Source: Acholeplasmataceae bacterium
GTDB lineage: Bacteria > Bacillota_I > Bacilli_A > Acholeplasmatales > Acholeplasmataceae
Reading direction: 5' to 3'
DNA: 64,000 bases
Assembly: GCA_963675245.1 (NCBI GenBank)
Contig: OY775910.1
Location: 544,001 to 608,000 of the forward strand
Below are positions 612 through 7,805 of the stretch, one piece after another (within the stretch, counting starts at the first letter, position 1; the number at the start of each line of letters is the position of its first letter). The notes under the pieces were generated by a model, which did not search any database, was not told the origin of the DNA, and saw only the letters and a list, made by a program, of their open reading frames with translations. Made by a program: the position numbers and the translations under genes.

Positions 612-690
612 GCGTTTAATTTGCAATAAAGTCTGAATACGCATCGTTTGCGAATTCACTTAAAAAATAATCTGTTATATCATTGATAAC
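585..690. repeat. Direct repeat copy 1: duplicated 3' end and terminator of the lipoprotein gene 6189-7805
   Basis: 98/106 nt identical to 6158-6263 by manual alignment; encodes ...VINDITDYFLSEFANDAYSDFIAN* versus ...VIADMTDYFSSEFANDAYSDLIAN*. Confidence 0.95.
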
Positions 691-723
691 GGTTAAATTT
701 AGAGGTTTCCTAATAGCAACCTT

Positions 724-745
724 ATATATTACTGGAGTCATGTAC
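724..745. repeat. Palindromic cassette-boundary site, copy A (empty, not followed by a toxin)
   Basis: atatattactggagtcatgtac; 728-758 is 27/31 identical to 4555-4585. Confidence 0.8.
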
Positions 746-855
746 CTAAGTAGCGCCACAATTTAAAATTCCTATTAATTTATATCATTCTAGCAACTAT
801 GTATCCGTTTGTCGCATTAATCAAACAATCAAAATCCTAATTTAAATTATACAAA

Positions 856-1143
856 CTAATTGTCAATTTGTTTGTATAATATCAACAGGCATGTTTTCAT
901 AAGATTATAAAAAATCAAATTTTCTATATCTTTAGAAACAAATTCTCCAATTCTTTTTTTGTTTTGGGCATCAATATTATAGTTGTCTAATTCTTGTCTG
1001 CTGATATTTTCTCCTGAGTATGCCCTACTAATAAGACCATAAATCGAATCTACCATTGTAATGTTTTTAACATTATCATAAAAATCATTCGGAGTATTCC
1101 AATTAAGGAATACTCTAAGTATTTGTTTTTCATTTTTATTCAT
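856..1143 (-). CDS. Putative immunity protein for toxin 1150-1785
   Basis: 95-aa ORF starting 6 nt after the toxin stop; position-based call. Confidence 0.6.
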   Translation of the reverse strand: MNKNEKQILRVFLNWNTPNDFYDNVKNITMVDSIYGLISRAYSGENISRQELDNYNIDAQNKKRIGEFVSKDIENLIFYNLMKTCLLILYKQIDN

Positions 1144-1149
1144 ATTTTA

Positions 1150-1785
1150 TCACCATATTCCAAATGTAATAACTTTTCCTGCGGATGTAAATAATCCATT
1201 TAAACCATACCCAAAAAATTTAGTGTTTAATGTCCAAGAATGTTGTAATCCCTTATAACTAGATATTAATGAAAGTGCATTAGCATTTTGATTTGCAAAT
1301 CCTACCGCTTTATCTTTATAGCTAATGATATTACCAAAGCCTTTACCATATTTACCATAATGATGTTTCATGGATTGAAAACCTGATTTAAAAGTTCCCT
1401 TATCCCACATGCTGGCAGCTTTGGCTACTTTGAAAGCATTTGATGCAGCCCCAGTAACCCCTCCAATGAATGCTCCTGTCATAAAGCCATCAGCAAAACC
1501 GCTATAGAAACCTTCCCAACTGCCAGAACTTATACCACCAATGGTTCCTGATATTAATCCACCAGATATTGCACCAATTGCAGCACCTTTTAATGCACCA
1601 GATAGTATAAAGCCTGCAACTCCCCCAGCAGCTCCACCCGTTGCTACGGTAGCTATTGCAAGTGCAACAATAATCACTACACCAGCTACTATCTTTGCTT
1701 CATTACTCCAACTAAATGGATTCCACCACGCTTGTCCGGTGCTATCTATGTACATCACTGGAGTAATGTAGTCAGACATAACCAC
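1150..1785 (-). CDS. Orphan Rhs C-terminal toxin cassette (Gly/Ala-rich hydrophobic region plus probable RNase-type tip)
   Basis: Starts YITPVMYIDSTG (Rhs PxxxxDPxG junction), then a Gly-rich helical region and a basic tip WDKGTFKSGFQSMKHHYGKYG...GKVITFG. Confidence 0.8.
   Translation of the reverse strand: MVMSDYITPVMYIDSTGQAWWNPFSWSNEAKIVAGVVIIVALAIATVATGGAAGGVAGFILSGALKGAAIGAISGGLISGTIGGISSGSWEGFYSGFADGFMTGAFIGGVTGAASNAFKVAKAASMWDKGTFKSGFQSMKHHYGKYGKGFGNIISYKDKAVGFANQNANALSLISSYKGLQHSWTLNTKFFGYGLNGLFTSAGKVITFGIW
1750..1771. repeat. Palindromic cassette-boundary site, copy B
   Basis: gtacatcactggagtaatgtag; overlaps codons Y-I-T-P-V-M-Y of the toxin ORF. Confidence 0.85.
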
Positions 1786-1814
1786 TGTAATAGATGGACG
1801 TGATTAGCAAATAT

Positions 1815-2240
1815 TTATGAAATTTTCTTATTTATTTCGTAATCCATGAATTTGTTTAAAGCTATTTTGGGTTCTTCTATTAACTCTAAGAAGAATCTTT
1901 TATCTTCAATCATCCATTAAGGCGCATATACATTCTTATATTTGATTGGTTGAAAATAACATACTCCACCACCACAAATTTGATAACCACCTTTGTATTT
2001 CTTTTCAAATACCCAATTCTCGTCAATTTCATCATCAATAATATTGAATTCATCACCTAATTGATAAAAACCTAATGTTGTTATTTGTTTTAAATAAATA
2101 AGTATGTATTTTTTTCGATGTGATTGCATAATTGCATAAACGTTAAATTCTTGAGAATAATTAAAATCAAGTCCAAAATAAATTGCATTATTCTCTTGAA
2201 ATTTATACATATCAACGATTCTTACTTTCATACGTTTCAT
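1815..2240 (-). pseudogene. Putative immunity protein, probably interrupted by a premature TAA at 1917-1919
   Basis: Starts 3 nt after the 2244-2738 stop; the frame stays open past the stop as WMIEDKRFFLELIEEPKIALNKFMDYEINKKIS* to 1815. Confidence 0.5.
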
Positions 2241-2243
2241 CTC

Positions 2244-2738
2244 CTATTTAAGTTTAAAATCATACCACATTTGAAACGGATACCATTTAGGAAAATATCT
2301 ATTACCTACATAATGAACGGTATTACCATCAAAACTCATTTGATATTTTGTCCATCCTAACCATCCTGGCATTTTTGGATTTCTCATTGGAACTTTACCA
2401 TATAAGCTTGTTCCTGAATTTGGATATTTTTTTGCAGCATTCATAGTTATGCTTGATTTTAAATTATTAGGTTGTGTATTATCTGTCTTTCCATTACCCC
2501 ATATCACAAGATATTTGATATTTGGTAAGTCTTTAATGAAATCAAATGAATCAATTTCACCCGACCATTGATCAATAATCACTTTATCAATGCCTTTTTG
2601 TTTAATATAGTCAATTTGTCTGTCGTTATCTTTGGTGTCAATAATGATAGCTTCTTTGATGAGCGCTCCACCTTGATATTGAAAAATCGAGTAAAACCAA
2701 TAACCATCTCTCTTTTCGCATACTAATTCTTTATTCAT
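2244..2738 (-). CDS. Chimeric ORF: N-terminus of an LRR-like immunity protein fused to a toxin C-terminal tip
   Basis: Acidic N-half with LRR-like FDFIKDLPNIKYLVIWGN; basic C-half PNNLK..MNAAKKYP..PMRNPKMPGWLGWTKYQ..VHYVGN..DFKLK resembling a common polymorphic-toxin tip. Confidence 0.55.
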   Translation of the reverse strand: MNKELVCEKRDGYWFYSIFQYQGGALIKEAIIIDTKDNDRQIDYIKQKGIDKVIIDQWSGEIDSFDFIKDLPNIKYLVIWGNGKTDNTQPNNLKSSITMNAAKKYPNSGTSLYGKVPMRNPKMPGWLGWTKYQMSFDGNTVHYVGNRYFPKWYPFQMWYDFKLK

Positions 2739-2748
2739 AACCAGCTCC

Positions 2749-2976
2749 TATCTGCCCCAGTAATCATCTAAATATAACGTGAATTGATTATTTTGCCAAT
2801 AATATCGTCTGCCTAGTGACCATATTTTGTCATAGAACTCTCTGTTTCAACTTTTATATCCATATTCAACCATCCACATTAATAAATCTTCTCTCTTCAG
2901 GATTGTAATATCTGCTATTTAAGTAATATAACCCTACTTCTTCATCATATTGATATCCCCTATATCATTATGGATT
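2749..2976 (-). pseudogene. Rhs repeat-associated core remnant followed by a toxin-tail fragment
   Basis: 2976-2866 reads NP**YRGYQYDEEVGLYYLNSRYYNPEERRFINVDG*, the canonical Rhs core signature with stops. Another frame then gives ...NREFYDKIWSLGRRYYWQNNQFTLYLDDYWGR* just ahead of the next gene. Confidence 0.85.
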
Positions 2977-3067
2977 TCTATTACCACAATCAGATATGAT
3001 ATAACCTGTAGTTTTCTAAATATTTATAATCTTTTTAAATTTAAAGCCTTTTTTTATGAAACTATTA

Positions 3068-4048
3068 TCATAGCTTAACTAAATCATAGTCCGAAAGGTC
3101 TATATTCACTACTAAACTATTATCTCTACATAACGTATATTTACTGTCTGCAGTTTTTAACAAACTTTTAATTAGTTCTCCAAAATTTTCAAACTCAATT
3201 AATGCTATCATATGTCTTTCATTTAATTCTCTAATTTCAATCTCTCCTTTTGTCAAATAGATTTCATCTAATTTTCCAAGAAAACTAATTTTTTTATATC
3301 CAAGACTCGGGTTACGTGAATACATAAATCTAAGATTATATTTATTCTCTGATGTCCAATGAAGTGCTGGAAAGTTAGTTCTACGTTTTGAATGATAACC
3401 TTCTTCAAGAGCAGGAATATCTTTCATAAATTCCAATGTCTGTATGTCATCCACACTATAGTAATTGTATAAATAAACTGGGACTTCATTAGAAACGGCT
3501 ATACAACCTTCTCTTTGGCTCAAATCAACAATAAAATACCCGTAGCAAGCTTTTCCTTCTTGATGAATGATATCACATTCAATTCTGTACGCATAGACAC
3601 CATGATTCACTAATTTTTTTATGTTTTTGAAAAAGGAATCCGATCTAAGTTTCTTTTCAGCTACCATTTCTTTATCTAATGCTAAAAACATTTTTTTTGC
3701 TTGATTTAGCATTTGCTCATGTGTTGTTTTAGGAGCATAGTTAAGATCTAAATAGTTCTCATAAGGATCAAATAGCATAAACTCATCTTGTCTATTTACT
3801 AAATCAATATATGCTTGTTTAGCTTTCTCTTTGACTTCTGGAATAAGTCTACCAAGTTCCCACTGATAATATCCTAGTGATAACCATACCATTATTGGTA
3901 TGAATGATTTATCCATCAATATATTTTCATAGTCTTCGATGGTTAGTTTTGTTGCCTTTTCACTAGTTTCCCCGCTTTTTAAATAATCAAAATATGCTAA
4001 ACATATTTCTTCTACCATTAAATTTTCAAAATAGTATTTTACCCGCAT
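3068..4048 (-). CDS. Putative immunity protein for the GIY-YIG toxin
   Basis: Starts 4 nt after the toxin stop; WLSLGYYQWELGRLIPEVKEKA resembles motifs in toxin-adjacent immunity-like proteins. Confidence 0.6.
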   Translation of the reverse strand: MRVKYYFENLMVEEICLAYFDYLKSGETSEKATKLTIEDYENILMDKSFIPIMVWLSLGYYQWELGRLIPEVKEKAKQAYIDLVNRQDEFMLFDPYENYLDLNYAPKTTHEQMLNQAKKMFLALDKEMVAEKKLRSDSFFKNIKKLVNHGVYAYRIECDIIHQEGKACYGYFIVDLSQREGCIAVSNEVPVYLYNYYSVDDIQTLEFMKDIPALEEGYHSKRRTNFPALHWTSENKYNLRFMYSRNPSLGYKKISFLGKLDEIYLTKGEIEIRELNERHMIALIEFENFGELIKSLLKTADSKYTLCRDNSLVVNIDLSDYDLVKL

Positions 4049-4052
4049 ATAA

Positions 4053-4586
4053 TTATCTTCCTCCTAATTTTTCCCATAATAACCTTAATTCACTATCTAT
4101 TTTGTTAAGAATTAAAGATCCAGGATATCGTCTGTTTGATACACTTTTCCTTAAATTATATGGTAACATTTTGTCTGAGAATGGACTCACATCTATAATA
4201 TTATCCAAACCATGTGATAATATTAATCCCGTTTCCAATACACGTGCCTGTGATTCACTCATAGCACTTGAATAATTCATCTTTATAAATTGTCCAAACC
4301 TATTTTTATGGTCACGTAATCTTGTCTTTGGATTTTTTGTAATACCAACATAAAACACATTATTGTGTTCATCAAGTAGCGTATAGACATAATAATTGTC
4401 TTTGTTCCTTGCTGAATGTGCCGTCTCAATCGCCTCAGCGATTTCGACAACTGCAGGTTTAATTGCTACTGATGCTATAATTGCGATTATAAAGATTATT
4501 CCCCAAACGACTAAATCATCTGCAATTGCTATATTTCCTGTTGGATCTGTGAACATTACTGGATTAATGTACATATGTAGCGCCAT
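4053..4586 (-). CDS. Orphan Rhs C-terminal toxin cassette with GIY-YIG nuclease tip
   Basis: Starts YINPVMFTDPTG, then a hydrophobic helix, then YYVYTL..VFYVGITKNPKTRLRDH..ARVLETGLI..YN (GIY-YIG Y/Y-G/R/H/E/N pattern). Confidence 0.85.
   Translation of the reverse strand: MALHMYINPVMFTDPTGNIAIADDLVVWGIIFIIAIIASVAIKPAVVEIAEAIETAHSARNKDNYYVYTLLDEHNNVFYVGITKNPKTRLRDHKNRFGQFIKMNYSSAMSESQARVLETGLILSHGLDNIIDVSPFSDKMLPYNLRKSVSNRRYPGSLILNKIDSELRLLWEKLGGR
4551..4572. repeat. Palindromic cassette-boundary site, copy C
   Basis: gaacattactggattaatgtac; overlaps codons Y-I-N-P-V-M-F. Confidence 0.85.
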
Positions 4587-4705
4587 GGGATTATATTTTG
4601 GTTTTAATTGACTTTATTATATTATTCGAACACTTATAATCAATATCATTCTTTGTTATTTCTAAAGTAACTTTTTATATCATGCTTTTTTTAGTGGTGC
4701 ACTTG

Positions 4706-5134
4706 TCAATCACTCTTAACCTTGATACCGTAAAATTGTCCTGTCTTGACAATTTGTACCTCAATGACTTCTGCTAACGCTCTAAATATTCTGTTCTTGT
4801 TCCACCAAAAAAATGGATTTTTGAAGAAGAAGATTTTCTCGTGCTGTTCCCAGATACCTTTTTCTGTTTCAAATACATTAATTTTGTATTTGTGACGACC
4901 CATAAATTCCGGTTCTACATACATTTTCAAAAAATCAATACTATTGAAGTACGCAAAGTTTAAATCCCCTCTTGCTTCAATGCTTAAAACAGAGAAACAA
5001 CCATTTTCGTTATAATAACTATACGTATCTAAAGATGCGTTTTTACCCAAATAGTTTTCAAATATATGACTTGAATATTTCATGCCGTATTTAACACACA
5101 AAAAATCTAAATTTTTTTTAATTATTTCTTCCAT
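4706..5134 (-). CDS. Putative immunity protein for the toxin tip of 5145-6035
   Basis: AGGAG RBS overlapping the upstream stop; small ORF directly after the toxin tip. Confidence 0.6.
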   Translation of the reverse strand: MEEIIKKNLDFLCVKYGMKYSSHIFENYLGKNASLDTYSYYNENGCFSVLSIEARGDLNFAYFNSIDFLKMYVEPEFMGRHKYKINVFETEKGIWEQHEKIFFFKNPFFWWNKNRIFRALAEVIEVQIVKTGQFYGIKVKSD

Positions 5135-5144
5135 AAACAACTCC

Positions 5145-6035
5145 TTATAGATAATAATTTAGTGGCATTTTCCAAATATGCCTAGTTCTCCATATACCCA
5201 CAATCAGTTTTTCGGTACCATAATACAGTCCTCTTCCTCTATGTAAAGTAGTCATACCGATATCAATGACAGTATAACCTTTTCTGAGAGTATTGAGCAT
5301 CCAATTGCCATTATGTATAACTGACCTTGTGGTATTATATAACTGTCCTAAACCTTTTGCTCCTGATTTATAACCTTTCCATGCATCATAAATATTATCG
5401 GATATCCCCATTAGACGGGCAACGTCAGTGACTCTATCTACATCTCTACCGATCATGGTAACTCTGCCAAAATCACTTATATCATCTGATTTGATATTAT
5501 CTTTTGTTGAAACACTTGCATTTGATGATTGACTACCAACAAGTAGCCAATTAACCTCATAATCTGACATTTTAAGTTTGATATTTTGACTTGTGATGTC
5601 TTTGGGAAATTTGATATCGAATTTATTATCTTTATTTTTATATGTATTTGTACTTCCATCAAAATCTAGTGAGTTATCAATGTCAAACCATTCATCGCCA
5701 ACTTGATAACGAACTGCACCATCATATAAGACAACCTCATAACTGCCATCCTGCTTTCTGAAATGTTTTTCACTTTCTGTTCTTCTCGACGTGTCTTCAG
5801 CGACAATTGGAATGTCCTTTTTATCTATATCAACATTCTTAATCTTTTCTGTTTCCACATTTTCAACAATGTCATCAACAACAGGTTCATCTTGATTCGC
5901 AAACACTTGAAGTGGAATCAAATTAAAAAGCATCGCGATTAACACAATGGTTGCGATAGCTCTTTGCATACTTTAAATTCTTCTTGTTCTCACAATAATT
6001 TCATGTGAATCAAGACCACTAAACATTCTTTTCAT
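5145..6035 (-). pseudogene. Internally deleted secreted Rhs/WapA-like toxin gene (N-terminus fused directly to a toxin tip)
   Basis: GGGGG RBS and ATG at 6035, in-frame TAA at codon 21, signal peptide, WapA-like EDTSRRTESEKHFRKQDGSY..WFDIDNSL, then an abrupt switch to a basic tip with W..LRKGYTVIDIG..YYGTE. No YD repeats or core. Confidence 0.75.
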
Positions 6036-6157
6036 TTATTTAGCCCCCTATAAAACGATTGATTTTAGTTGTACATCGTTGTTGTTATTTCTTATATCAT
6101 ATCACTATAAAAATGCTTTGTAAACGACAAATATGTCATAGTCGTGATTAATTTATA

Positions 6158-6263
6158 AAAAAAAGCGGCATTATCTGCCGCTTTGCGTTTAATTTGCGAT
6201 TAAGTCTGAATACGCATCGTTTGCGAATTCACTTGAGAAATAATCTGTCATATCAGCAATAAC
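6158..6263. repeat. Direct repeat copy 2 (current 3' end and terminator of the lipoprotein gene)
   Basis: 98/106 nt identical to 585-690. Confidence 0.95.
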
Positions 6264-7805
6264 TGGTGCAGTTAAATCTTGTGCAACATCATTGATCACG
6301 ACACTCTCAACGCCAACAACACCATAAACATGTGCTAATTCGCGAGATGCTTTTCCGATAAGGCTACCTACATTGAGAACAACATCAGCAGCTGCAGATA
6401 CCGTAATACCTGTATCACCTGGAACCCATACAACAGCGTTTAGTGCATATGGTGGTTGATAATTCCCAACTAAACCACCAACGAAGAATCTCTTGTAAAC
6501 GCCTGTGTCAGCATCAGCAGATACATGTTCAACGTTAATATTACCAGCAAAGAAACCATCTTTAACTTTTAATGAACTGTTACCGATTAAACCACCAACA
6601 TATAATGTATAGGTACCAGTTGTGAATGTTTCTGCTAGCTGTATATCAACATAGACATCAATATTACCAGTCACAACAACATCACTAACATTACTTGAAT
6701 TTTCTGAAGCTAATTTATCACCAATTGCCCCACCGATAGCTACTTTGACTTGATCTTCATCATCAAATGCATCAATATAGGTTTGATAGGATAAATCAAT
6801 ATCAGCGTTCACTTCATGAATTTCTGAATCGACTTCTGAAAAACCGACGACTCCACCCATTTTAACAAGATAACCCTCATTATTATCGATTGAAGTTGTT
6901 TCAAGTGAGATGGAAGAGTTTGAAATGGTTGCCCCATTAAGTGTTCCTTTTAATTCACCAGCAATCCCACCAATATATACAAAATCATCTGATGATGATG
7001 TGATGTAATAATGACTGTTTGTGACATGAACATTCTCAATGGAGACATTGCTTGATGCCACATATCCAAATAAGAATCCGATGCGAGCGAGATTACTAAT
7101 CGCTTGTGGTGCTTCCAGCGTACCAATCGTTACATGATCAACTGTAAGATTAGACACATTAGCTGCAGAACTCACGTAACCAAAGACACCAATATAATAA
7201 TAATTACTATCAGGGTTTGTCGTTGAATTTGATGTTGTAATATTAATGTTACTTAATGTGTGGTTTTGGCCATCAAATGTGCCAGAAAAATATGTTGTAT
7301 CAAATGGTGAAATATAATCGATTCCTTCAAAGTCAAGATCGTTATCTAGCACGTAATCCGCACCACGATATGCGTCCATTGCTAGAAATTCTTCAACTGT
7401 TGAAATGTGAATTGTACCGATTGTTTGGAATGTAAATCGTTCAACAGCAATTACATCTCGATCTACAGTGGCTTCTACAATAATATAATAAGATTGTTCT
7501 AAGCCTAATCCTGCAAATGTAATGGTTGCCCCATCAATTGCATAATCTCCAGTAGTGCTCTTGCTAAAACTTCTTGAAGATATCGCTTCATCGTCAGCAT
7601 TATATAAGCGCGCATAAATTGTGCCTGTGATTTCATCTTCAGGATCATCAACAGTCAGTTTGACTGTAATGCTATTTTGATTAATTGATTCATCCGTAAA
7701 TGATGCTGTAATGGCAGTTTCATCATCAATCACAGTACCTTCTTTACATGCAACTAATGCAAATAAACTTACAATGGTTAATAAAATCAATACAAATTTC
7801 TTCAT
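6189..7805 (-). CDS. Surface lipoprotein with GLUG-like/beta-helix repeats
   Basis: Lipobox LVAC; FSGTFDGQNHTLSNI and repeated IGGIAG/VGGLIG/VGGLVG motifs; start overlaps the gltX stop. Confidence 0.75.
   Translation of the reverse strand: MKKFVLILLTIVSLFALVACKEGTVIDDETAITASFTDESINQNSITVKLTVDDPEDEITGTIYARLYNADDEAISSRSFSKSTTGDYAIDGATITFAGLGLEQSYYIIVEATVDRDVIAVERFTFQTIGTIHISTVEEFLAMDAYRGADYVLDNDLDFEGIDYISPFDTTYFSGTFDGQNHTLSNINITTSNSTTNPDSNYYYIGVFGYVSSAANVSNLTVDHVTIGTLEAPQAISNLARIGFLFGYVASSNVSIENVHVTNSHYYITSSSDDFVYIGGIAGELKGTLNGATISNSSISLETTSIDNNEGYLVKMGGVVGFSEVDSEIHEVNADIDLSYQTYIDAFDDEDQVKVAIGGAIGDKLASENSSNVSDVVVTGNIDVYVDIQLAETFTTGTYTLYVGGLIGNSSLKVKDGFFAGNINVEHVSADADTGVYKRFFVGGLVGNYQPPYALNAVVWVPGDTGITVSAAADVVLNVGSLIGKASRELAHVYGVVGVESVVINDVAQDLTAPVIADMTDYFSSEFANDAYSDLIAN

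Follow-up and report, generated by a model that had tools for sequence, protein, structure and literature searches.

The window analysed here, a 64,000-nt stretch of contig OY775910.1 of an Acholeplasmataceae bacterium (genome G000, whose contig coordinates are prefixed C1 below), carries near its start an Rhs island at about 690-6158 with its genes on the minus strand. Read 5' to 3' on that strand, the island consists of a gene joining an Rhs N-terminal region to a toxin, a small open reading frame (ORF), a GIY-YIG toxin ORF headed by a short palindromic site (site 3), a 326-aa ORF, a broken core fragment, a chimeric ORF, an immunity gene, a 211-aa toxin ORF headed by a further site (site 2), another small ORF and a last site (site 1). 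A reading made from the letters alone (hereafter the sequence-only reading) had described these sites as three dif-like palindromes of 22 bp, at 724-745, 1750-1771 and 4551-4572, which would bound Rhs toxin cassettes shuffled by a site-specific recombinase. When the window was searched with the 22-mer consensus of that reading, allowing up to 3 mismatches, exactly three matches were obtained, all on the plus strand and with 3, 2 and 2 mismatches, respectively, while 100 dinucleotide shuffles used as a control gave none. The positions, the common orientation (the coding strand of all three sites is the minus strand) and the two to three deviations of each copy from the consensus were as claimed. 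The sites lie at the 5' edge of orphan Rhs toxin cassettes, and the features concerned are the following.

4537-4586, minus strand: site 3, unit of about 50 bp around the 22-bp core 4551-4572; mirrored positions agree at 7/8 and 11/16
4563-4586 and 4562-4561, minus strand: left arm (starting with ATG) and CC of site 3; the right arm codes for P-V-M-F-T-D-P-T-G
4053-4586, minus strand: orphan toxin ORF of site 3, GIY-YIG nuclease domain (PF01541, E 1.8e-08)
3068-4048, minus strand: putative immunity gene of the GIY-YIG cassette, 326 aa, without a family match and assigned from its position
1736-1785, minus strand: site 2, full unit around the 22-bp core 1750-1771
1762-1785 and 1761-1760, minus strand: left arm (starting with GTG) and CC of site 2; the right arm codes for P-V-M-Y-I-D-S-T-G
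1150-1785, minus strand: orphan toxin ORF of site 2, 211 aa, Gly-rich membrane-like N-terminal part plus toxin domain
856-1143, minus strand: putative immunity gene of the site 2 cassette, assigned by position alone
710-759, minus strand: site 1, full unit around the 22-bp core 724-745; CC at 735-734; left arm of the same class as in site 3

The true unit is longer than 22 bp and is composed of a 24-nt left arm, a central CC and a right arm (710-759, 1736-1785 and 4537-4586), and its outer edge at position -24 is the start codon (GTG or ATG) of both toxin ORFs in the window. Within each 22-bp copy, 7-8 of the 10 arm pairs are complementary. ORF 4053-4586 opens with the site 3 peptide Y-I-N-P-V-M-F-TDPTG and ORF 1150-1785 with the site 2 peptide Y-I-T-P-V-M-Y; in both cases an Rhs core-end motif (P-x-x-x-x-D-P-x-G type) opens the toxin ORF and a small putative immunity gene comes next. 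Site 1 is a motif relic alone: it reads Y-M-T-P-V-I-Y, just about 10 nt of its right arm (P-V-I-Y) are left, no toxin lies downstream, and 31 nt further on a copy of the 3' end of a lipoprotein gene begins. A relic of the site 1 type also ends the array at the full-length Rhs locus of this genome (C1:947518-947557). As had been proposed, two of the sites head toxin units and the third closes the array without a toxin. The three 22-mers are cassette boundaries in an array of orphan Rhs toxin genes.

The two arms differ in their relation to full-length Rhs genes, of which this genome holds a single one.

C1:938811-945821: full-length Rhs gene, 2336 aa, reading N-M-Y-A-Y-C-A-N-N-P-V-M-Y-L-D-I-S-G

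The right arm corresponds to the conserved core-end codons of Rhs genes (P-V-M-Y-x-D-x-x-G), so this half was identified correctly by the sequence-only reading. Its other statement, that the left half is not the usual Rhs sequence, was borne out as well. The full-length Rhs genes of G000, of the congeneric genome G169 (two genes) and of G092 read AYC[AF]NN-P-[VL]-M-Y before and at the junction, and that of G097 has the variant AYVNNNPISY; in the full-length genes examined [AV]-N-N precedes the proline and none has Y-I-T there. Among 77 long homologues of the window toxin, Y-[IM]-[TN]-P was found in none and the canonical motif in 68, and none of 95 pooled palindromic sites lies behind an open frame of more than 52 codons. 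A Y-I-[NT]-P-V-M-Y encoded by ordinary full-length Rhs genes would have spoken for a coding by-product, and they do not encode it.

Two kinds of junction can be distinguished. Type-0 junctions (AAYAAY) retain about 19 nt of core (GCATAYTGTGCAAACAAT) ahead of the CC, and the cores attached to junctions of this type reach 873 codons. The palindromic kind has a foreign 24-nt arm ending in ACATKACT. Palindromic orphans contain no core upstream of the proline codon, their identity with the main-gene junction being limited to the short P-V-M-Y stretch, and at the window sites no core is retained that would be long enough for homologous recombination with the main gene. Once the peptide Y-I-T-P-V-M-Y is given, 6 of the 10 arm pairs are dictated by first and second codon positions; the point needing explanation is the presence of a foreign Y-I-T peptide, and of the DNA encoding it, in orphans at all.

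When 172 genomes of the family were scanned with a degenerate junction pattern, 10 matches were obtained in 6 genomes, whereas the reversed pattern used as a control gave 0. All 10 are orphan Rhs junctions. In the orphan array of G169, the stop codon of a 525-aa gene overlaps the first codon of a palindromic left arm. The product of this gene is a large serine recombinase (LSR) with the domains Resolvase, Recombinase, Zn_ribbon_recom and DUF4368, and its closest solved relative is TnpX (E 2.4e-33). A family search with the G169 LSR yielded 25 genomes at E <= 1e-20, and at the 12 best family loci a site follows the 3' end of the LSR gene in 11. Also, in a scan of all GTDB species, a site was present at 7 loci (Acholeplasmataceae, Izemoplasmatales and Bacilli metagenome-assembled genomes) versus 0 of 68 others, which were mostly from Clostridia. 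A metagenome scan with a 19-letter core returned 111 stretches, and the 80 loci taken from these reduced to 76 distinct sites, about 8 of which are chance matches.

Genomes and metagenomes together gave a pooled set of 83 sites. The LSR was present at 22 of them and absent at 37, a call of absence requiring at least 1800 nt of visible upstream sequence, which left 24 sites without a call. In the relatives a TnpX/TndX-type LSR gene has its stop codon where the left arm starts, and the distance from stop codon to CC at the 22 linked sites is quantised (23 nt in eleven cases, 117 nt in five, 26 nt in two, and 17, 24, 110 and 154 nt in one case each). The co-occurring recombinase that the sequence-only reading had suggested looking for is therefore found in relatives, as a serine recombinase at fixed spacing. 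LSR genes that are followed by the conserved arm share just 41-44% identity with one another. Where the LSR is missing, about 30 of the 37 sites resemble the nearest LSR-linked arm up to a sharp limit at -24, and 7 of the 37 retain a decayed LSR tail. Of the 22 LSR-linked sites, 19 have an NTG codon at -24, as do 23 of the 37 without an LSR, and TAATG or TAGTG stop-start overlaps with the LSR gene occur. The left arm of window site 2 is identical at 24 of 24 positions to an arm that lies behind an LSR stop codon in genome G076. Viral contigs gave five exact matches to the pattern; each of them is followed by a stop codon and none is an Rhs junction, and there is therefore no sign of carriage by phages.

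Regions upstream of the LSR genes show features of their own. In subfamily 1 a conserved pair of 11-bp inverted repeats (CAAACAGACTC ... GAGTCTGTTTG) lies upstream of the LSR start at loci L029 (G169:C1:1384460-1384600), L034, L035 and L036. The pair brackets about 130 nt with a promoter-like box, TGTATAAT, and might serve as an invertible promoter or form an RNA structure that regulates the recombinase. In subfamily 2 (L063, L064 and L065) a conserved module opens about 360 nt upstream with a perfect hairpin, AACGTGGCTAT-ACTA-ATAGCCACGTT, nested within GTTTAGT/ACTAAAC repeats, with a short conserved ORF (about 45 codons) ahead of the LSR gene. A second junction-like site was sought at the left end of the LSR module, and in neither subfamily does the start of the module resemble the junction.

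The arms are constrained at the level of DNA. Mirrored positions agree on average at 6.45/8 and 10.3/16 in 31 palindromic sites, with some sites reaching 18/24, and at 3.5/8 and 5.5/16 in 25 type-0 junctions. Codon -3 is NAC in 24 of 25 sites (TAC 17, CAC 4, AAC 3) and never NAT, in a genome in which TAT, CAT and AAT account for 83, 77 and 74% of the respective codons. Similarly, codon -1 is ACT in 23 of 25 sites versus a genome share of 20%. The tyrosine of the coding right arm is encoded in a mixed fashion (TAC 10, TAT 8). Since the residue at -3 varies (Y, H or N) while bases 2 and 3 remain AC, the constraint acts on the DNA and not on the protein. A 24-nt arm and a CC centre agree with the geometry of LSR sites, which span about 40-50 bp and consist of half-sites of about 20-25 bp around a non-palindromic central dinucleotide. 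In the available excerpts of PMC3783163 the half-site covered by an LSR is 25 bp of a pseudo-palindromic attP, a value that the 24-nt arm fits.

The heptamer TGCTTAT occurs at -23..-17 in one class of palindromic arms and at -19..-13 in type-0 arms (for example L064:14927 versus L151), that is, 4 bp nearer to the centre in the latter, and right arms coding for D-I-S-G bear its mirror image at +17..+23. This offset recalls that of the zinc-ribbon motif between attP and attB of serine integrases, and it may be due to chance.

Exchange of cassettes was examined at 70 sites with enough flanking sequence, calling the upstream side shared when 175 nt were at least 80% identical and the downstream side not shared when 200 nt were less than 60% identical. 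In 9 pairs the upstream side was shared and the downstream side was not, and the distal left arm was identical at 11-16 of 16 positions; in 7 pairs the situation was reversed, and the distal left arm was identical at just 3-11 of 16 positions. As the distal arm tracks the upstream side, the arm is part of the upstream unit, and the toxin ORF goes with the downstream one. The switch of identity falls inside -8..+9 in 16 of 16 informative pairs, the invariant core preventing a finer placement. Boundaries between re-assorted units, as the sites had been interpreted, are what these pairs display.

Window site 2 is a member of one exchange pair. Relatives of its toxin are the C-termini of full-length Rhs proteins, and the 5' part of its toxin ORF is 90% identical to a G169 orphan sitting behind a different arm; its identity with the tip of a full-length Rhs gene of G169 is 85%, with homology beginning at -1. 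The same toxin is therefore fused to a full-length Rhs core in one species and stands as an orphan behind a palindromic arm in another. Also, the orthologous island of G169, with the same flanking genes, contains different cassettes between the same kinds of sites. The toxin ORFs are themselves mosaic: the window ORF 1150-1785 and the G169 toxins share only their first 110-120 codons (Gly-rich and membrane-like), at 85-90%, and have different C-terminal toxin domains and immunity genes, which indicates a second level of module exchange within the cassette.

In the genome of the window a domain search detected no gene with a Resolvase domain, and a tblastn search for an LSR pseudogene with 11 LSR proteins gave a best E of 0.17, away from the Rhs loci. 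A short remnant was found next to site 3.

4632-4661, minus strand: decayed relic of an LSR 3' end, codons KQQRIDIYYKF, LSR subfamily 2, 70-99 nt upstream of the CC of site 3

This relic has a local score of 39 against LSR tails, which was reached by none of 300 dinucleotide shuffles. Among the five palindromic sites of the genome, a significant relic was present upstream of site 3 only; at sites 1 and 2 and at the two sites of the full-length Rhs locus, 291, 192, 84 and 32 of 300 shuffles, respectively, scored as well. The linkage seen in relatives is thus not found in this genome, and because the serine recombinase is absent and only a 30-nt remnant is left, the sites here are fossils. The three window sites are best read as fossils of the process or as targets solely for an incoming enzyme, and the window holds a fossil, not a working system.

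The genome encodes six tyrosine recombinases, at 128, 994, 1060, 1132, 1133 and 1490 kb, none of which lies within 45 kb of either Rhs array (544-550 and 939-948 kb). A dif-like candidate at C1:1494095 (minus strand) is situated close to where the cumulative GC skew peaks (1.48 Mb), and the tyrosine recombinase with the best score (C1:1490468-1490989) lies about 3 kb away. The candidate reads ...ATAA-TATATA-TTATG..., unlike the CTGGAG centre of the Rhs sites. A Xer/dif site is a single site near the terminus with 11-bp arms and a 6-bp centre, whereas the Rhs sites are present in three copies at 544-549 kb; an integron would have an IntI-type recombinase and an attI site beside the array, where the nearest tyrosine recombinases are more than 45 kb away. 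The interpretation of the sequence-only reading as tyrosine-recombinase sites of the Xer/dif type is rejected in view of the differing dif-like candidate and the unlinked tyrosine recombinases. Its idea of a recombinase encoded elsewhere holds insofar as a dedicated recombinase is linked to the sites in relatives, and fails insofar as none is encoded in this genome, while the alternative that it had mentioned, a 2-bp core read by a serine recombinase, is favoured by the evidence.

Considering these data, we regard it as probable (roughly 60%) that the 22-mers are the cores of LSR sites of about 50 bp, with crossover at CC, that bound toxin-immunity cassettes. Observed directly are the site anatomy, the LSR linkage with its fixed spacing, the DNA constraint on the left arm, the breakpoints within the core, and the occurrence of a toxin in main and orphan positions. 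A further claim, for which the balance tips slightly towards doubt, is that the TnpX-like LSR clade of Acholeplasma-like bacteria is a dedicated Rhs toxin-tip integrase that inserts units in frame, with the start codon of the arm keeping the displaced pair expressed. Catalysis at CC, circular intermediates, the direction of the reactions and the role of the start codon are what we infer for such a system, which might work as follows. An LSR dimer would bind both mirror-image arms and exchange strands at CC, and recombination between two sites of the same orientation would release the intervening cassettes as a circle. If such a circle recombined with the junction of a full-length rhs gene (...AAT-CC-AGTGATGTA...), the new toxin would become joined in frame to the Rhs shell, and the previous one would be displaced downstream. 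In its new place, the left arm in front of the displaced toxin would provide an NTG start codon 8 codons upstream of the proline, which in many cases overlaps with the stop codon of the LSR gene, so that the displaced toxin and immunity genes could still be translated. Toxin-immunity-LSR units would be autonomous, and units ending in a bare 24-nt arm would need an LSR in trans. According to excerpts of the respective papers, DUF4368 marks the multi-targeting TndX-like clade (PMC10083194), and TndX performs both integration and excision at a conserved coding target with a fixed central dinucleotide (PMC4430133). By analogy, the published behaviour of TnpX and TndX plausibly fits the mechanism proposed here.

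Several points weigh against this interpretation. No recombination product, either circle or empty site, was seen in the assembled contigs, which are what the sequencing runs of the one study with this stretch comprise, a fourth run covering the island in small low-depth pieces. The single joint, between positions 758 and 1751 with 1206 letters in between, proved to be the paralogous array at the full-length Rhs locus and represents neither a deletion nor a circle. With no Resolvase gene and only the 30-nt LSR remnant, no present activity can be claimed for this genome. The breakpoints are resolved to -8..+9 and not to CC itself, position +4 does not track the downstream unit in some pairs, and with 18-40 bp of conserved sequence, occasional homologous recombination would be possible as well. 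A 758-bp duplication in this LSR-less genome ends near site 2 and inside a toxin gene, and other processes therefore shape the arrays too. For the left arm, the NTG start at -24 is a plausible second reason for conservation, and the counts given above are not independent because the sites share descent. The left arm of the full-length junction mirrors poorly (3.5/8), so that, if this junction is the insertion target, the LSR must accept a weak half-site. Finally, an LSR module that is 86% identical between G169 and L074 lies behind unrelated immunity genes, and a simple toxin-immunity-LSR unit leaves the left neighbours of the LSR module unexplained.

A serious rival to LSR-mediated exchange is that short-homology recombination or gene conversion swaps the cassettes, that the LSR is merely a selfish transposon targeting the Rhs junction, and that the arm persists for its start codon and for translational coupling. 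The frequent NTG at -24 in LSR-linked and LSR-less sites alike, the TAATG and TAGTG overlaps and the start of both window toxin ORFs exactly at -24 would all be expected under this explanation. It also accommodates the 97.2% duplication ending near site 2 in a genome without a serine recombinase, as well as the preference of TndX-type enzymes for conserved coding DNA, as far as excerpts of PMC4430133 describe it. Moreover, homologous exchange between main and orphan genes is the published model, put forward for Salmonella on the basis of rearranged evolved lines (PMC3967940). However, the stretch shared here is about 18-40 bp, compared with 522 bp at 95% identity in Salmonella according to the same source, and yet 16 of 16 pairs break inside -8..+9. 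A role as a start codon explains neither the mirror symmetry nor the rare codons, ending in C and T, that are invariant at -3 and -1, and the precise loss of a transposon would take the arm with it instead of leaving a sharply delimited 24-nt arm behind about 30 unrelated immunity genes. We therefore consider this explanation unlikely, although it deserves more weight than any of those that follow.

That the palindrome is a functionless by-product of coding, Y-I-T-P-V-M-Y being self-complementary in DNA and the copies alike by descent, is improbable. The right arm is plainly a conserved Rhs motif, 6 of 10 arm pairs follow from the peptide, and single window copies are merely 7-8/10 complementary; against this, Y-I-T is not an Rhs motif and is absent from the full-length genes and the 77 long homologues, and the arm is conserved behind LSR genes that have diverged to 41-44% identity. 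A residue at -3 that varies among Y, H and N over constant AC is the opposite of what a coding constraint would produce, and some sites are symmetrical at up to 18/24 positions. An RNA hairpin at the 5' end of the orphan-toxin mRNA, acting as a signal for translation or stability, is a very remote prospect: site 2 folds at -14.7 kcal/mol (z -1.88; 10 of 200 shuffles as good), but at sites 3 and 1 the fold is no more stable than in shuffled sequence (z +0.33 and +0.54; 120 and 139 of 200 as good), and the stem has at most 7 bp because a 2-nt loop is impossible. The least credible alternative is that the sites are Xer/dif-like targets of a tyrosine recombinase or attC-like sites of an integron. 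It can draw solely on the loose resemblance of CATTA-N6-TAATG to the dif core, whereas the dif-like candidate of this genome has a different centre and adjoins a tyrosine recombinase, all six tyrosine recombinases lie more than 45 kb from the arrays, and in relatives the linked enzyme is of the serine type. With a dif-like candidate lying elsewhere in the genome, the Xer reading was given up.

The proposed LSR sites bounding toxin cassettes can be compared with several known systems. SCC and SCCmec elements, mobilised by the LSRs CcrAB and CcrC, insert serially at a single site within the 3' region of a conserved gene and are bounded by direct copies of that site, and SCC units lacking a recombinase exist that would need one in trans. 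They differ from the Rhs sites in LSR clade and target gene, and SCC insertion makes no new fusion protein, whereas every insertion at an Rhs site would give the target a different C-terminal toxin. Shufflons and invertible tail-fibre segments swap the C-terminal part of a protein in frame and site-specifically, by inversion between inverted sites and with a fixed set of segments. All Rhs sites point in the same direction, and therefore excision and insertion of mobile cassettes would be the expected reactions, unlike in shufflons.

The closest match in enzyme type is provided by Tn4451 and Tn5397, whose recombinases TnpX and TndX share the Resolvase, Recombinase, zinc ribbon and DUF4368 domains. 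In excerpts of PMC4430133 and PMC3783163 a single enzyme suffices for integration and excision with a fixed central dinucleotide, and TndX favours a conserved protein-coding target (PMC4430133), akin to the Rhs junction. These transposons carry resistance or conjugation genes, have GA as the dinucleotide and do not use their target in frame; at the Rhs sites, in contrast, the cargo consists of toxin and immunity genes, the core would be the CC of a proline codon, in-frame fusion to the Rhs shell is proposed, and many units in the arrays have no enzyme.

Integrons and, to judge from part of the preprint on it, rAID-1 of Bacteroidales, which has a XerD-type recombinase and integron-like intergenic repeats (bioRxiv 10.1101/471110), resemble the Rhs arrays in having cassette arrays of conflict genes, repeated junction sequences and a linked recombinase. 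However, their recombinase is a tyrosine recombinase at the head of the array and their cassettes are promoterless whole genes (immunity genes in rAID-1) that are not fused in frame to a carrier, whereas the Rhs arrays have a serine recombinase placed inside the array. In Salmonella, orphan toxin-immunity pairs lie downstream of the main rhs gene and an orphan tip can replace the main tip (PMC3967940). The acquisition and swapping of toxin domains by polymorphic toxins such as Rhs is usually explained by homologous recombination over retained core. The Salmonella orphans keep 522 bp of core at 95% identity (PMC3967940), compared with about 19 nt in the type-0 orphans described here and none before the proline in the palindromic ones, which have the foreign 24-nt arm instead. 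A full-text literature search, supplements excluded, found no description of a serine recombinase linked to Rhs or polymorphic-toxin cassettes.

The arrangement of sites with a linked LSR suggests an undescribed way of swapping toxin tips. If this is true, a route driven by a site-specific recombinase would be a different mechanism of toxin-domain acquisition and would explain orphan arrays with almost no core. Such a system would be a serine-recombinase analogue of the integron with protein domains, not genes, as cassettes, and it would extend the known LSRs by a clade whose target is a defined coding sequence, naming one enzyme, a 50-bp site and a 2-bp crossover. The three odd palindromes of the window would then be explained as fossils in a genome that lost its LSR.

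The remaining features of the island are listed below.

5145-5969, minus strand: head gene, 274 aa, signal peptide and Rhs N-terminal region joined straight to a toxin domain
2872-2988, minus strand: broken Rhs-associated core fragment (TIGR03696, 39.4 bits) with internal stops (1 TGA, 1 TAA)
1733-2490, minus strand: 758-bp duplicate, 97.2% identical to its original at C1:945575-946332
6158-6263 (copy A) and 585-690 (copy B): direct repeat of 106 bp, 92.5% identical, flanking the 5.6-kb Rhs island

At the three sites the cassettes have almost no retained Rhs core, as had been stated, and the core fragment at 2872-2988 is separate from them. The head gene is devoid of a repeat core and of a P-V-M-Y junction; its C-terminal part has 77% DNA identity to a toxin ORF of the G169 orphan array and its N-terminal part is 80% identical to the orthologous island of G169. 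Overall, this gene resembles a deletion derivative of a full-length Rhs gene.

The 758-bp duplicate covers the end of the toxin part of the full-length Rhs gene (the last approximately 80 codons), together with the immunity gene and the next left arm, and its homology ends 17 nt beyond the 22-bp core of site 2, which is 26 nt beyond the CC. The chimeric ORF 2244-2738 (minus strand) starts with approximately 85 unrelated residues and ends in approximately 80 that form the C-terminus of the toxin in the full-length Rhs; homology breaks off at 2490, within the toxin domain.

The 106-bp repeat comprises the last 24 codons, the stop codon and the terminator of the lipoprotein gene 6189-7805. This gene was rejected as the original target of site 1, its own A-P-V-I codons being out of register with the site. 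Site 1 continues in frame into repeat copy B, and the orthologous island of G169 has no such flanking direct repeat.

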